NCBI RefSeq assembly: GCF_003334315.1
Contig: NZ_QOWR01000034.1
Strand: one strand, 5' to 3'
Length of the DNA: 49,379 bases
Source: Escherichia coli
Lineage (GTDB): Bacteria; Pseudomonadota; Gammaproteobacteria; Enterobacterales; Enterobacteriaceae
The notes beneath the pieces were generated by a model, which was not told the DNA's origin, did not search any database, and saw only the letters and a program-made list of their open reading frames with translations. A program made the translations under genes and the position numbers. Positions 1,334 through 26,420 of the stretch are shown piece by piece (the stretch's first letter is position 1; every line of letters starts with the position of its first letter).

Positions 1334-3763
1334 ATGACATTAACAAGACGTGAATTTATTAAACACAGCGGTATTGCCGCTGGAGCGCTGGTGGTGACAT
1401 CGGCAGCACCGCTCCCCGCATGGGCAGAAGAGAAGGGCGGTAAAATCCTCACCGCGGGACGTTGGGGAGCGATGAACGTAGAAGTGAAGGACGGCAAGAT
1501 TGTTTCTTCAACAGGCGCGCTGGCGAAAACCATACCGAATTCCTTACAGTCTACGGCGGCGGATCAGGTACACACCACGGCGCGTATTCAGCATCCGATG
1601 GTGAGAAAAAGCTATCTCGATAATCCACTGCAACCGGCGAAAGGTCGTGGCGAAGATACCTATGTACAGGTGAGCTGGGAACAGGCATTAAAACTGATTC
1701 ATGAGCAACATGATCGTATTCGTAAAGCTAACGGACCATCGGCCATTTTTGCCGGATCTTACGGCTGGCGCTCTTCTGGCGTGTTGCATAAAGCGCAAAC
1801 CTTACTGCAACGTTATATGAACCTGGCGGGCGGTTATTCCGGGCATAGCGGCGATTATTCAACCGGGGCAGCACAGGTGATCATGCCGCATGTGGTCGGT
1901 TCTGTAGAGGTGTATGAACAGCAGACCTCCTGGCCGCTGATTCTGGAAAACAGCCAGGTTGTGGTGCTGTGGGGAATGAACCCGCTGAATACCTTAAAAA
2001 TTGCCTGGAGCAGTACCGATGAGCAAGGGCTGGAATACTTCCATCAGCTGAAAAAATCTGGCAAACCAGTGATTGCCATTGATCCTATCCGCTCCGAAAC
2101 CATCGAATTCTTTGACGATAATGCCACCTGGATCGCGCCGAATATGGGCACCGACGTGGCACTGATGTTAGGGATTGCGCATACCCTGATGACACAAGGC
2201 AAACACGATAAAGTGTTCCTTGAAAAATACACTACCGGGTATCCGCAGTTTGAAGAGTATCTGACAGGTAAGAGCGATAATACGCCGAAGAGCGCGGTCT
2301 GGGCGGCGGAAATTACTGGCGTACCGGAAGCGCAGATAGTCAAACTCGCTGAACTGATGGCGGCGAATCGCACAATGCTGATGGCAGGCTGGGGAATTCA
2401 GCGCCAGCAATATGGTGAACAGAAACACTGGATGCTGGTGACGCTGGCGGCGATGTTAGGGCAGATTGGTACACCAGGCGGCGGTTTTGGTTTCTCTTAT
2501 CATTACTCCAACGGTGGCAACCCGACGCGTGTTGGCGGCGTGCTGCCGGAAATGTCTGCGGCGATTGCCGGACATGCCAGCGAGGCCGCTGATGATGGCG
2601 GAATGACGGCGATTCCTGTTGCCCGTATCGTCGATGCGCTGGAAAATCCTGGCGGCAAATATCAGCATAACGGTAAAGAACAAACGTATCCGAATATCAA
2701 AATGATCTGGTGGGCGGGTGGCGGTAACTTTACCCATCACCAGGATACTAATCGTCTGATTAAAGCATGGCAGAAACCGGAGATGATCGTCGTTTCTGAA
2801 TGCTACTGGACCGCAGCAGCCAAACACGCAGATATCGTATTACCGATCACCACATCGTTTGAGCGCAATGACTTGACGATGACCGGTGATTACAGCAACC
2901 AGCATATTGTGCCGATGAAGCAGGCTGTTGCTCCGCAATTTGAAGCGCGTAACGATTTTGACGTGTTTGCCGATCTTGCGGAATTACTCAAACCTGGCGG
3001 AAAAGAGATCTATACCGAAGGTAAAGATGAAATGGCGTGGCTGAAATTTTTCTATGATGCCGCTCAGAAAGGTGCCCGTGCGCAACGCGTCACTATGCCA
3101 ATGTTTAATGCCTTCTGGCAGCAAAATAAACTGATCGAAATGCGCCGCAGCGAGAAGAACGAACAGTACGTTCGTTATGGTGATTTCCGCGCCGATCCGG
3201 TGAAAAATGCGCTGGGTACGCCAAGCGGCAAAATTGAAATCTATTCAAAAACGTTGGAAAAATTTGGCTATAAGGATTGCCCGGCACACCCAACCTGGCT
3301 GGCTCCTGATGAATGGAAAGGTACCGCCGACGAGAAGCAGTTACAGCTTCTGACCGCACATCCGGCACACCGTTTACACAGTCAGCTTAACTATGCGGAA
3401 CTGCGTAAAAAATATGCGATCGCCGATCGTGAACCAATCACTATTCACACCGAAGATGCTGCACGCTTTGGTATTGCGAATGGCGATCTGGTGCGTGTCT
3501 GGAACAAACGTGGTCAGATTTTGACAGGCGCGGTGGTGACTGACGGGATCAAAAAAGGCGTGGTATGCGTGCATGAAGGTGCATGGCCAGATCTGGAAAA
3601 TGGCTTGTGTAAAAACGGCAGTGCGAACGTGTTAACGGCGGATATCCCCAGCTCGCAGCTGGCAAATGCCTGTGCCGGTAACTCAGCGTTGGTGTATATC
3701 GAAAAATATACGGGCAATGCACCGAAGTTAACGGCGTTTGATCAGCCAGCTGTTCAGGCGTAA
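1334..3763 (+). CDS. torZ: Periplasmic molybdoenzyme, trimethylamine-N-oxide reductase 2 (TorZ/BisZ)
   Basis: Start moved from track ATG 1316 to ATG 1334, which has GGAGG upstream. Twin-arginine signal [15 protein letters not shown], 809 aa, immediately downstream of torY. Confidence 0.93.
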
Positions 3764-19443: not shown

Positions 19444-20886
19444 TTACTCTACCGTTAAAATACGCGTGGTATTAGTAGAACCCACGGTACTCATCACGTC
19501 GCCCTGGGTGACAATCACCAGGTCACCAGACATCAAGTAACCTTTATCGCGCAGCAGATTAACCGCTTCGCTGGCAGCTGCTACGCCGTCATTAGCGCTA
19601 TCAAAGTGCACCGGCGTAACGCCACGATAGAGAGCAGTCAGGTTCAGCGTACGTTCATGGCGCGACATGGCGAAAATTGGCAGACCAGAGCTGATACGGG
19701 AGGTCATCAGCGCGGTACGACCCGATTCGGTCATGGTGATGATCGCCGTAACGCCTTTCAGGTGGTTAGCTGCGTACATTGCTGACATGGCAATAGCTTC
19801 TTCCACATTGTCGAACTGAACGTCCAGACGGTGTTTAGAAACGTTGATGCTCGGGATTTTTTCCGCACCCAGGCAAACGCGCGCCATGGCTGCAACGGTT
19901 TCTGACGGATACTGCCCAGCGGCAGTTTCTGCAGACAGCATCACAGCGTCAGTACCATCCAGAACGGCGTTTGCTACGTCCATGACTTCTGCACGCGTCG
20001 GCATCGGGTTAGTAATCATTGACTCCATCATCTGGGTCGCCGTGATTACCGCTCGGTTTAGCTGACGCGCACGACGGATCAACGCTTTCTGAATGCCGAC
20101 CAGTTCCGGGTCGCCAATTTCCACACCGAGGTCGCCACGTGCAACCATTACCACGTCAGAGGCGAGGATGATGTCATCCATTGCATCCTGGCTGCAAACG
20201 GCTTCCGCACGTTCAACCTTGGCAACAATTTTCGCATCACATCCTGCATCGCGTGCCAGGCGACGGGCATAGTTCAGATCTTCGCCACAGCGTGGGAAGG
20301 AGACAGCCAGGTAATCTACGCCAATCAACGCCGCAGTCTTAATGTCTGCTTTGTCTTTTTCGGTCAGCGCTTCAGCCGACAAACCGCCGCCAAGTTTGTT
20401 GATACCTTTATTGTTGGAGAGGGGACCACCGACGGTGACTTCGGTGAACACTTTCATGCCCTGAACTTCCAGTACTTTTAACTGGACGCGACCATCGTCC
20501 AGCAGCAGGATGTCACCAGGCACGACGTCAGCAGGCAGGCCTTTGTAGTCGATACCGACTTTTTCTTTGTCGCCTTCACCTTTACCCAGGTTGGCGTCGA
20601 GCAGGAATTTATCCCCAATATTGAGGAAAACTTTGCCTTCTTTAAAGGTGGATACACGGATTTTGGGCCCCTGGAGGTCACCCAGAATAGCCACATGACG
20701 CCCCAGTTTTGCGGCAATCTCACGAACTTTATCCGCGCGCATTTTGTGATCTTCAGGCGAGCCGTGAGAAAAGTTCATACGTACAACGTTGGCACCCGCC
20801 GCGATAACTTTTTCAAGATTATTATCGCGATCTGTTGCTGGGCCTAACGTGGTAACGATTTTTGTTCTGCGAAGCCTTCTGGACAT
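19444..20886 (-). CDS. pykA: Pyruvate kinase II
   Basis: Start trimmed to ATG 20886 ([19 protein letters not shown]...), 480 aa; the track's 47-codon upstream extension overlaps the hexR 3' end. Confidence 0.95.
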
Positions 20887-21013: not shown

Positions 21014-21883
21014 TTAGCGATCGTCACTTAAATTAAGTAACTGCTTATCAAAACGCGATTCCTTCAGCGCTTCCTTGACCCGCTTCAAGTTATCTCTGAA
21101 TTTTGCACCGCGTCGCAAAGTAAATCCTGTCGCCAGCACATCTATCACGGTCAGCTGTGCAAGTCGAGAAACCATGGGCATATAAATGTCAGTATCTTCC
21201 GGTACGTCGAGGGTAATTGCCAGCGTTGCTTCCCGGGCGAGCGGGGTACCCGCAGAGGTGAGAGCAATCACCATGGCGTCGTTTTCGCGTGCCAGCTGCG
21301 CCAGCTCGACCAGATTTTTTGTTCTTCCAGTGTGAGAAATCAGCACCACCACGTCTCCGTCGCTACAATTCATACAACTCATGCGTTGCAGCACGATATC
21401 ATCGGAGTACACCACCGGAACATTAAAACGAAAGAACTTATTCATCGCATCGTGGGCAACGGCGGCTGAAGAGCCTAATCCGAAAAAGGCGATTTTCTTT
21501 GCCTGAGTGAGCAAGTCGACGGCGCGGTTGATGGCAGATTTATCCAGTGAATGACGGACATGATCAAGCGTTGCCATTGCGGACTCAAATATTTTCCCTG
21601 TGTATGATTCAACGCTGTCATCTTCATTGACATTGCGATTAACATAGGGAGTGCCATTCGCCAGACTCTGTGCCAGATGAAGTTTAAAATCAGGAAAACC
21701 GCGCGTGTCCATGCTGCGACAGAAACGATTCACCGTCGGTTCGCTAACATTGGCTTCCAGTGCCATAGCAGCAATACTCGAATGGATCGCGTTATCGGGC
21801 GAAGCCAGAATGACCTCGGCAACTTTGCGCTCTGATTTGCTCAAATGTTCCAGCTGAGACTGGATTTTTTCCAGCATATTCAT
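21014..21883 (-). CDS. hexR: RpiR/HexR-family transcriptional regulator (HTH plus SIS domain)
   Basis: 289-aa ORF, divergent from zwf; matches recalled YebK/HexR. Confidence 0.88.
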
Positions 21884-22220
21884 GATGTAAAGAGACTCAC
21901 GGGTAATGACGATTTCCGCACTGAAAGAAATCGAAATGCAGTTTTGTCAGATATTACGCCTGTGTGCCGTGTTAATGACAAAAGCAGATAAAAAAGTTGT
22001 TATTTTTTTTCATAACATGATCAGTGTCAGATTTTTACCCAATGGAAAACGATGATTTTTTTATCAGTTTTGCCGCACTTTGCGCGCTTTTCCCGTAATC
22101 GCACGGGTGGATAAGCGTTTACAGTTTTCGCAAGCTCGTAAAAGCAGTACAGTGCACCGTAAGAAAATTACAAGTATACCCTGGCTTAAGTACCGGGTTA
22201 GTTAACTTAAGGAGAATGAC

Positions 22221-23696
22221 ATGGCGGTAACGCAAACAGCCCAGGCCTGTGACCTGGTCATTTTCGGCGCGAAAGGCGACCTTGCGCGTCGTAAATTGCT
22301 GCCTTCCCTGTATCAACTGGAAAAAGCCGGTCAGCTCAACCCGGACACCCGGATTATCGGCGTAGGGCGTGCTGACTGGGATAAAGCGGCATATACCAAA
22401 GTTGTCCGCGAGGCGCTCGAAACTTTCATGAAAGAAACCATTGATGAAGGTTTATGGGACACCCTGAGTGCACGTCTGGATTTTTGTAATCTCGATGTCA
22501 ATGACACTGCTGCATTCAGCCGTCTCGGCGCGATGCTGGATCAAAAAAATCGTATCACCATTAACTACTTTGCCATGCCGCCCAGCACTTTTGGCGCAAT
22601 TTGCAAAGGGCTTGGCGAGGCTAAACTGAATGCTAAACCGGCACGCGTAGTCATGGAGAAACCGCTGGGGACGTCGCTGGCGACCTCGCAGGAAATCAAT
22701 GATCAGGTTGGCGAATACTTCGAGGAGTGCCAGGTTTACCGTATCGACCACTATCTTGGTAAAGAAACGGTGCTGAACCTGTTGGCGCTGCGTTTTGCTA
22801 ACTCCCTGTTTGTGAATAACTGGGACAATCGCACCATTGATCATGTTGAGATTACCGTGGCAGAAGAAGTGGGGATCGAAGGGCGCTGGGGCTATTTTGA
22901 TAAAGCCGGTCAGATGCGCGACATGATCCAGAACCACCTGCTGCAAATTCTTTGCATGATTGCGATGTCTCCGCCGTCTGACCTGAGCGCAGACAGCATC
23001 CGCGATGAAAAAGTGAAAGTACTGAAGTCTCTGCGCCGCATCGACCGCTCCAACGTACGCGAAAAAACCGTACGCGGGCAATATACTGCGGGCTTCGCCC
23101 AGGGCAAAAAAGTGCCGGGATATCTGGAAGAAGAGGGCGCGAACAAGAGCAGCAATACAGAAACCTTCGTGGCGATCCGCGTCGACATTGATAACTGGCG
23201 CTGGGCCGGTGTGCCATTCTACCTGCGTACTGGTAAACGTCTGCCGACCAAATGTTCTGAAGTCGTGGTCTATTTCAAAACACCTGAACTGAATCTGTTT
23301 AAAGAGTCGTGGCAGGATCTGCCGCAGAATAAACTGACTATCCGTCTGCAACCTGATGAAGGCGTGGATATCCAGGTACTGAATAAAGTTCCTGGCCTTG
23401 ACCACAAACATAACCTGCAAATCACCAAGCTGGATCTGAGCTATTCAGAAACCTTTAATCAGACGCATCTGGCGGATGCCTATGAACGTTTGCTGCTGGA
23501 AACCATGCGTGGTATTCAGGCACTGTTTGTACGTCGCGACGAAGTGGAAGAAGCCTGGAAATGGGTAGACTCCATTACTGAGGCGTGGGCGATGGACAAT
23601 GATGCGCCGAAACCGTATCAGGCCGGAACCTGGGGACCCGTTGCCTCGGTGGCGATGATTACCCGTGATGGTCGTTCCTGGAATGAGTTTGAGTAA
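22221..23696 (+). CDS. zwf: Glucose-6-phosphate 1-dehydrogenase
   Basis: 491 aa; G6PD signature RIDHYLGKE and NADP-binding N-terminus [11 protein letters not shown]. Confidence 0.97.
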
Positions 23697-23930: not shown

Positions 23931-25742
23931 ATGAATCCACAATTGTTACGCGTAACAAATCGAATCATTGAACGTTCGCGCGAGACTCGCTCTGCTTATC
24001 TCGCCCGGATAGAACAAGCGAAAACGTCGACTGTTCATCGTTCGCAGTTGGCATGCGGTAACCTGGCACACGGTTTCGCTGCCTGCCAGCCAGAAGACAA
24101 AGCCTCTTTGAAAAGCATGTTGCGTAACAATATCGCCATCATCACCTCCTATAACGACATGCTCTCCGCGCACCAGCCTTATGAACACTATCCAGAAATC
24201 ATTCGTAAAGCCCTGCATGAAGCGAATGCGGTTGGTCAGGTTGCGGGCGGTGTTCCGGCGATGTGTGATGGTGTCACCCAGGGGCAGGATGGAATGGAAT
24301 TGTCGCTGCTAAGCCGCGAAGTGATAGCGATGTCTGCGGCGGTCGGGCTGTCCCATAACATGTTTGATGGTGCTCTGTTCCTCGGTGTGTGCGACAAGAT
24401 TGTCCCGGGTCTGACGATGGCAGCCCTGTCGTTTGGTCATTTGCCTGCGGTGTTTGTGCCGTCTGGACCGATGGCAAGCGGTTTGCCAAATAAAGAAAAA
24501 GTGCGTATTCGCCAGCTTTATGCCGAAGGTAAAGTGGACCGCATGGCCTTACTGGAGTCAGAAGCCGCGTCTTACCATGCGCCGGGAACATGTACTTTCT
24601 ACGGTACTGCCAACACCAACCAGATGGTGGTGGAGTTTATGGGGATGCAGTTGCCAGGCTCTTCTTTTGTTCATCCGGATTCTCCGCTGCGCGATGCTTT
24701 GACCGCTGCCGCTGCGCGTCAGGTTACACGCATGACCGGTAATGGTAATGAATGGATGCCGATCGGTAAGATGATCGATGAGAAAGTGGTGGTGAACGGT
24801 ATCGTTGCACTGCTGGCGACCGGTGGTTCCACTAACCACACCATGCACCTGGTGGCGATGGCGCGCGCGGCCGGTATTCAGATTAACTGGGATGACTTCT
24901 CTGACCTTTCTGATGTTGTACCGCTGATGGCACGTCTCTACCCGAACGGTCCGGCCGATATTAACCACTTCCAGGCGGCAGGTGGCGTACCGGTTCTGGT
25001 GCGTGAACTGCTCAAAGCAGGCCTGCTGCATGAAGATGTCAATACGGTGGCAGGCTTTGGTCTGTCTCGTTATACCCTTGAACCATGGCTGAATAATGGT
25101 GAACTGGACTGGCGGGAAGGGGCGGAAAAATCACTCGACAGCAATGTGATCGCTTCCTTCGAACAACCTTTCTCTCATCATGGTGGGACAAAAGTGTTAA
25201 GCGGTAACCTGGGCCGTGCGGTTATGAAAACCTCTGCCGTGCCGGTTGAGAACCAGGTGATTGAAGCGCCAGCGGTTGTTTTTGAAAGCCAGCATGACGT
25301 TATGCCGGCCTTTGAAGCGGGTTTGCTGGACCGCGATTGTGTCGTTGTTGTCCGTCATCAGGGGCCAAAAGCGAACGGAATGCCAGAATTACATAAACTC
25401 ATGCCGCCACTTGGTGTATTATTGGACCGGTGTTTCAAAATTGCGTTAGTTACCGATGGACGACTCTCCGGCGCTTCAGGTAAAGTGCCGTCAGCTATCC
25501 ACGTAACACCAGAAGCCTACGATGGCGGGCTGCTGGCAAAAGTGCGCGACGGGGACATCATTCGTGTGAATGGACAGACAGGCGAACTGACGCTGCTGGT
25601 AGACGAAGCGGAACTGGCTGCTCGCGAACCGCACATTCCTGACCTGAGCGCGTCACGCGTGGGGACAGGACGTGAATTATTCAGCGCCTTGCGTGAAAAA
25701 CTGTCCGGTGCCGAACAGGGCGCAACCTGTATCACTTTTTAA
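23931..25742 (+). CDS. edd: Phosphogluconate dehydratase (Entner-Doudoroff)
   Basis: 603-aa ORF, IlvD/Edd dehydratase family; followed by eda. Confidence 0.97.
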
Positions 25743-25778: not shown

Positions 25779-26420
25779 ATGAAAAACTGGAAAACAAGTG
25801 CAGAATCAATCCTGACCACCGGCCCGGTTGTACCGGTTATCGTGGTAAAAAAACTGGAACACGCAGTGCCGATGGCAAAAGCGTTGGTTGCTGGTGGGGT
25901 GCGCGTTCTGGAAGTGACTCTGCGTACCGAGTGTGCAGTTGATGCTATCCGTGCTATCGCCAAAGAAGTGCCTGAAGCGATTGTGGGTGCTGGTACGGTG
26001 CTGAATCCACAGCAGCTGGCAGAAGTCACTGAAGCGGGTGCACAGTTCGCAATTAGCCCGGGTCTGACCGAGCCGCTGCTGAAAGCTGCTACCGAAGGGA
26101 CTATTCCTCTGATTCCGGGGATCAGCACTGTTTCCGAACTGATGCTGGGTATGGACTACGGTTTGAAAGAGTTCAAATTCTTCCCGGCTGAAGCTAACGG
26201 CGGCGTGAAAGCCCTGCAGGCGATCGCGGGTCCGTTCTCCCAGGTCCGTTTCTGCCCGACGGGTGGTATTTCTCCGGCTAACTACCGTGACTACCTGGCG
26301 CTGAAAAGCGTGCTGTGCATCGGTGGTTCCTGGCTGGTTCCGGCAGATGCGCTGGAAGCGGGCGATTACGACCGCATTACTAAGCTGGCGCGTGAAGCTA
26401 TAGAAGGCGCTAAGCTGTAA
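25779..26420 (+). CDS. eda: KHG/KDPG aldolase
   Basis: 213-aa ORF; matches recalled Eda. Confidence 0.97.

Follow-up and report, generated by a model that had tools for sequence, protein, structure and literature searches.

The sources named for the gamma-proteobacterial HexR regulogs are reportedly Leyn et al. of 2011 and 2016. The HexR of Pseudomonas putida is said, after Daddaoua et al. in 2009, to act at zwf-1/hexR, edd-glk and gap-1 through an operator of the form TTGT-N7-8-ACAA. HexR motifs differ among gamma-proteobacterial groups and the enterobacterial HexR regulon is described as shrunken (PMC5343134); the same paper, with reference to Leyn et al. 2011, calls HexR in Enterobacteriales a local regulator of zwf. 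A HexR site that lies downstream of a promoter is taken to repress it (PMC11906056). The zwf promoter also belongs to SoxS class I, its soxbox preceding a non-optimal -35 hexamer by 7 bp (PMC9638938; PMC6900184). HexR control of zwf has already been predicted by comparative genomics, and finding an operator is in itself little new; what is gained over that prediction is that the box is pinned to a deduced transcription start and that the E. coli copy proves to be a weak variant. We read the 15-bp box at 22158-22172, with a probability of roughly three in four, as the operator through which HexR (YebK) represses the zwf promoter until released by KDPG.

The window, the whole stretch of 49,379 nucleotides that was analysed, is E. 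coli chromosome with the gene order pykA-hexR<>zwf-edd-eda. The 1.4 kb flanking the zwf box is present in 5426/5426 complete E. coli genomes, with 100% identity to many E. coli chromosomes, and E. coli HS30-1 is colinear with the whole window, base for base. The product of hexR scores 565.6 bits over residues 1-283 against the NCBIfam model NF008451 'transcriptional regulator HexR' (cut-off 296). Since this divergent gene passes the cut-off, the regulator is identified as HexR, the presumed binder of the zwf box. The intergenic region separating the divergent hexR and zwf genes is 337 bp long and 61% A+T. Feature coordinates are collected in the table.

Table. Genes, promoter elements and candidate regulatory sites around the hexR-zwf intergenic region (positions in the window)
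Feature	Position	Strand	Remarks
pykA	19444-20886	-	
hexR (yebK)	21014-21883	-	RpiR-family regulator, HTH and SIS domain; RefSeq annotation
Second, weaker HexR-like box, TGTTATTTTTTTTCA	21998..22012		14.3 bits, rank 2-3 in window
SoxS/MarA/Rob box (soxbox) of zwf, ATCGCACGGGTGGATAAGCG	22098..22117	+	published class I geometry
zwf -35 hexamer, TTTTCG	22125..22130	+	non-optimal; 7 bp after soxbox, 17 bp before TACAGT
zwf -10 hexamer, TACAGT	22148..22153	+	placed by the published soxbox/7 bp/-35 geometry and a 17-bp spacer
Putative HexR box, zwf promoter, CGTAAGAAAATTACA	22158..22172		form taken in E. coli by the enterobacterial consensus TGTAATAAAATTACA
zwf transcription start, inferred	22159..22161	+	6-8 nt after -10
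zwf, glucose-6-phosphate dehydrogenase	22221-23696	+	putatively regulated gene; ORF, RefSeq annotation
edd	23931-25742	+	
eda	25779-26420	+	

An earlier note on this DNA, made from the letters alone, had proposed a 15-mer about 50 nt before the zwf ATG as a candidate HexR operator. The 15-mer was found as described, on the + strand, with 48 nt from its last base to the ATG at 22221. The perfect right half and imperfect left half that the note had seen are also there: compared with TGTAAT-N3-ATTACA, the right half ATTACA has no mismatch and the left half, CGTAAG, departs at positions 1 and 6. The pattern YGTAAKNNNATTACA has 1 match in the window, with 0 expected from 100 shuffles. The note had further proposed that the intergenic region be scored with a HexR matrix, and this was done with a symmetric matrix built from 16 RegPrecise-derived Vibrio parahaemolyticus sites (PMC11906056 S4), independent of E. 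coli. The zwf box scores 14.5 bits, third among the ~49,000 positions of the 49-kb window. The chance of such a score is 2.3e-5 per position at intergenic composition, giving 0.007 expected occurrences in the 337-bp region, and 144 of 20000 shuffles of that region attain it.

The HexR protein scan, taking one genome per species, yielded 80 loci, 79 of them with a divergent hexR-zwf pair (spacer 330-534 bp), from genera that include Escherichia, Citrobacter, Salmonella, Klebsiella, Enterobacter, Kosakonia, Serratia, Rahnella, Pectobacterium and Pantoea. The comparison set of 80 sequences consists of the window and 79 other hexR-zwf intergenic regions, and the orthologous box is the top matrix match in 80/80; conservation of a site ahead of orthologous genes in related genomes is the comparative yardstick by which regulogs are drawn. 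The perfect palindrome accounts for 43 of these boxes, TGTAAGAAAATTACA (TGTAAG left half) for 11, the E. coli form for 10 in several genera, CGTAATAAAATTACA (CGTAAT left half) for 6, and other variants for the remaining 10. Column by column, the percentages over the 80 sequences are T79 G100 T94 A100 A100 T70 A96 A99 A100 A99 T100 T100 A100 C100 A94, with at least 94% conservation in 13 of the 15 columns; in the downstream leader conservation falls to 31-86%. The lowest columns, T79 and T70, are positions 1 and 6, so the E. coli mismatches fall at exactly the tolerant positions. Within the species, the segment 22090-22225 has at least 99% identity in 5063/5426 E. coli genomes, and the polymorphisms inspected in it all lie outside the zwf box.

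The top match to the HexR matrix in the window is another sequence, AGTAATTTAATTAGA at 187-201, ~105 nt upstream of torY (306), which scores 15.1 bits and may be an A+T-rich chance match. That an A/T-rich matrix yields such a match elsewhere lends something to the idea that the zwf box, too, is a chance resemblance in A+T-rich intergenic DNA. We regard this idea as very improbable, given the 0.007 occurrences expected in the region, and the comparative data, with an orthologous box in every sequence across several families, already refute it.

The promoter is conserved together with the box. The -10 columns of the 80 sequences read T100 A100 C96 A100 G71 T100, the fifth position being G or T, and the TTT of the -35 hexamer is 90-98% conserved. 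The gap between the -10 hexamer and the box is 4 nt in 68/80, 5 nt in 11/80 and 3 nt in 1/80, whereas the box lies anywhere from -39 to -215 relative to the ATG. Because the -10 gap is constant and the ATG distance variable, the box tracks the promoter rather than the coding start, and at 3-5 nt after the -10 hexamer it would span the transcription start (about -2 to +14). The predicted start agrees with the zwf scaffold of -62 to +13 in PMC9638938, if -62 corresponds to the soxbox edge at 22098. A location over the zwf start fits what is expected of a repressor. Three loci, L007 (Citrobacter sp.) and L027 and L030 (Kluyvera), have hexR-zwf spacers of 497-534 bp, ~140-190 bp above the usual; in the two Kluyvera loci the insertion separates the box, now at -203 and -215, from the zwf ATG, and L007 carries one on the hexR side, and in all three the promoter/box module is intact.

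A GCAC element of MarA/SoxS type had been suggested further upstream, with the caution that the assignment was weak. The element is present and its sequence match is indeed weak; its position, on the other hand, fits the published zwf soxbox (PMC9638938). The order of elements is that of the published promoter: soxbox at 22098-22117, 7 bp, TTTTCG, 17 bp, TACAGT. The marbox consensus allowing 3 mismatches does match 22098-22117, yet it has 102 matches in the window against 107.6 expected and so does not discriminate; the soxbox assignment therefore rests on the published geometry. Its columns are only moderately conserved (32-72% each).

Conservation of the box could have a cause other than HexR, such as RNA structure or small-RNA pairing in the initial transcript and 5′ UTR of zwf, or another protein that binds the dyad, and we consider this quite improbable. 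In its favor, the box stands where the transcript begins, a promoter-escape or RNA constraint being conceivable there, and other factors have been placed near it. An FNR ChIP-chip peak lacking a recognised FNR motif lies in the zwf/yebK region at 1,934,484, with another at pykA (PMC1802558), and ChIP-exo of the DeoR-family protein YciT assigns to zwf a peak at 1934276-1934306, with a signal/noise of 8.35 and RNA polymerase also bound (PMC8464067). Against this, the conserved dyad is identical to the independently derived Vibrio HexR consensus; with the HexR dyad itself as the pattern that is conserved, another binding protein is unlikely. The YciT peak presumably falls about 30-60 nt into the zwf coding region, at ~22253-22283, and outside the box, if NC_000913.2 coordinates are assumed for the peak and for zwf. 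The FNR motif (TTGAT-N4-ATCAA) and the CRP motif have half-sites and spacing unlike those of the HexR box. The UTR directly downstream of the box is poorly conserved.

An RNA reading of the box was set aside: the folding energy of the 77-nt zwf leader is -13.4 kcal/mol, and shuffles give -13.05 (z = -0.14). Scanning 21800-22300 against Rfam found no family, the one noise match being to a plant microRNA family (E = 0.32).

The proposal that 22158-22172 is a HexR operator, in a spacer where zwf diverges from hexR, is thus supported from four sides: the NF008451 match, the Vibrio matrix, the 80 orthologous boxes and the published regulon description (PMC5343134). Occupancy of the E. coli box by HexR, the way in which zwf is repressed and the response of its promoter to KDPG are what we infer from these data. 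A HexR dimer would sit on the 15-bp dyad, covering about -2 to +14, and bound there would stop open-complex formation by RNA polymerase or its escape from that complex. KDPG, the Entner-Doudoroff intermediate, would bind the SIS domain and take HexR off the DNA, so that zwf is derepressed. The SoxS/MarA/Rob box ~40 bp upstream would be a separate, independent activating input. In E. coli the left half has drifted at the tolerant positions (C1 and G6), and the operator is probably weaker than the perfect palindrome of Salmonella or Citrobacter.

That weakness could go further, and the E. coli box could be a decayed operator, truly of HexR descent and of too low an affinity to act. zwf would then be effectively HexR-free, with HexR acting mainly elsewhere, for instance at 21915-22040 and on lag-phase physiology. 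The zwf box at 14.5 bits is a weak match to the Vibrio matrix, below all 16 training sites (15.0-24.6 bits), whereas its Salmonella and Citrobacter orthologs score 22.4 bits. Of the 16 peaks that YebK ChIP-exo gave on glucose M9, none falls in the interval 1.61-2.27 Mb, which takes in the zwf/yebK region (PMC8464067 Dataset S4), and the lag-phase phenotype is unexplained by the Entner-Doudoroff pathway. The ChIP-exo data may be insensitive, since most of the peaks (uxaB, uxaC, rplC, ygjD, mepS) are common to unrelated factors. In the literature searched, neither E. coli HexR binding to this exact zwf box nor measurements of zwf expression in an E. coli hexR mutant came to light.

The sequence comparison speaks against decay. 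The CGTAAG left half is kept in 10 of the 80 sequences, spread over several genera, and TGTAAG in 11 more; only positions 1 and 6 have changed, GTAA and AAAATTACA being intact; the inspected polymorphisms of E. coli avoid the box; and accepted Vibrio HexR sites include some with C at position 1 or a base other than T at position 6. Drift after a loss of function would spare no core, and the core is under purifying selection, both inside E. coli and outside it, so a full loss is disfavored. We therefore think it unlikely that the box is a relic, and equally doubtful that E. coli has largely freed zwf from HexR and repurposed the protein (e.g., for autoregulation or for lag-phase control on nutrient downshift). 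Were it so, Salmonella and Citrobacter, unlike E. coli, would retain tight KDPG control of zwf through the perfect palindrome.

Apart from the operator proposed at zwf, the hexR side of the spacer also has a claim to HexR binding. A gel shift of 'the yebK promoter' by purified YebK from E. coli is undone by 3 mM KDPG (PMC4488073). The primers of that gel shift map to 21915-22040, a fragment that contains the second HexR-like box and leaves the zwf box outside, so that what has been demonstrated is HexR binding somewhere in the hexR-proximal part of the spacer. Whether the second box is a hexR-side operator is uncertain. Its orthologs are mostly TGTTGTTTTTTTTCA, at 11.8 bits; Serratia and Pectobacterium have lost it, and E. 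albertii has it with broken spacing. It lies in the best-conserved block of the hexR-zwf spacer, 21998-22040 (TGTTGTTTTTTTTCATTACATGATC..GTC in most Enterobacteriaceae), which could serve as the promoter of hexR, as an auto-operator for HexR or as both. Two hexR promoter candidates were obtained: CTGACA-17-AAAAAT at 22030-22002 on the - strand, from a promoter scan, and, as a -10 element suggested by the alignment, the conserved GTATATTCTTG, which in E. coli is GTAATATCTGA at about 21948-21958. The conserved block also carries TTGATC or ATGATC in most genera, which might be an FNR half-site. DNA looping between the two boxes was set aside because they keep no conserved helical phase, their centers being 160 bp apart in E. 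coli and about 168-182 bp in other genera.

A conserved inverted repeat was observed in the hexR leader at 21910-21933, 27-50 nt upstream of the hexR ATG (21883). The E. coli form is CGATTTC-N10-GAAATCG, and most genera have CGATTTCA-N12-TGAAATCG. In a 39-sequence alignment the 8-bp helix named from it is paired in 88.7% of cells (28-52% for slid controls), and 8/8 pairs have at least one change on both sides; 0/500 shuffles match this. RNAalifold predicted no structure for the hexR leader. The repeat may form an RNA stem-loop in the hexR 5′ UTR.

The presence of edd-eda and pykA nearby had led to the suggestion that HexR controls the whole central-carbon cluster. We found this unsupported in E. 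coli, where no box was detected ahead of edd, eda or pykA; matrix scores peak at 4.2 bits between hexR and pykA, at 6.6 bits between zwf and edd and below 0 between edd and eda. Among 79 loci, no box of at least 11 bits occurs near edd, and the Enterobacteriaceae loci have none in their hexR-pykA or zwf-edd-eda spacers. Boxes upstream of pykA were found only in Serratia (L067, L069 and L070; TGTAATTTTACTACA at about 3474-3488, 19.9 bits, 88 nt before pykA) and Rahnella (L076 and L077; about 3538-3552, 15.6 bits, 79 nt before pykA). These Yersiniaceae boxes have no counterpart in Enterobacteriaceae, which suggests that the lineage of E. coli dropped pykA from its HexR regulon. The E. coli regulon appears reduced to zwf, perhaps with hexR itself, in keeping with the shrunken enterobacterial regulon of PMC5343134.

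zwf stands at the entrance to the oxidative pentose-phosphate pathway and to the Entner-Doudoroff pathway, and it is one of the main NADPH sources. A KDPG-sensitive repressor site downstream, together with an oxidative-stress activator site upstream, would aid the reading of zwf expression data. For NADPH engineering, mutation of the box or deletion of hexR should raise zwf.

The E. coli box most resembles the gamma-proteobacterial HexR operators of RegPrecise (consensus TGTAATTAAATTACA, Vibrio and Shewanella), sharing with them the 15-bp dyad, the half-sites and the 3-bp center. Also shared with these regulogs are an RpiR/SIS regulator gene adjoining zwf and the place of zwf as a core member; by analogy, KDPG would be the common effector, and a box downstream of the -10 hexamer would fit repression. 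The E. coli site differs from those of Vibrio and Shewanella in its weak CGTAAG left half, and their regulons comprise dozens of central-metabolism genes whereas that of E. coli appears to hold zwf and perhaps hexR. Pseudomonas putida offers a looser parallel, in which the divergent hexR-zwf arrangement, a repressor released by KDPG and overlap with the promoter would be alike, while the operator differs in consensus and structure and control extends to edd, glk and gap-1, which is unseen in E. coli. The class I SoxS/MarA/Rob system operates at the very same E. coli zwf promoter. Its soxbox serves a monomeric activator of AraC type that binds upstream, and the HexR box is a separate dyad downstream that does not overlap it.
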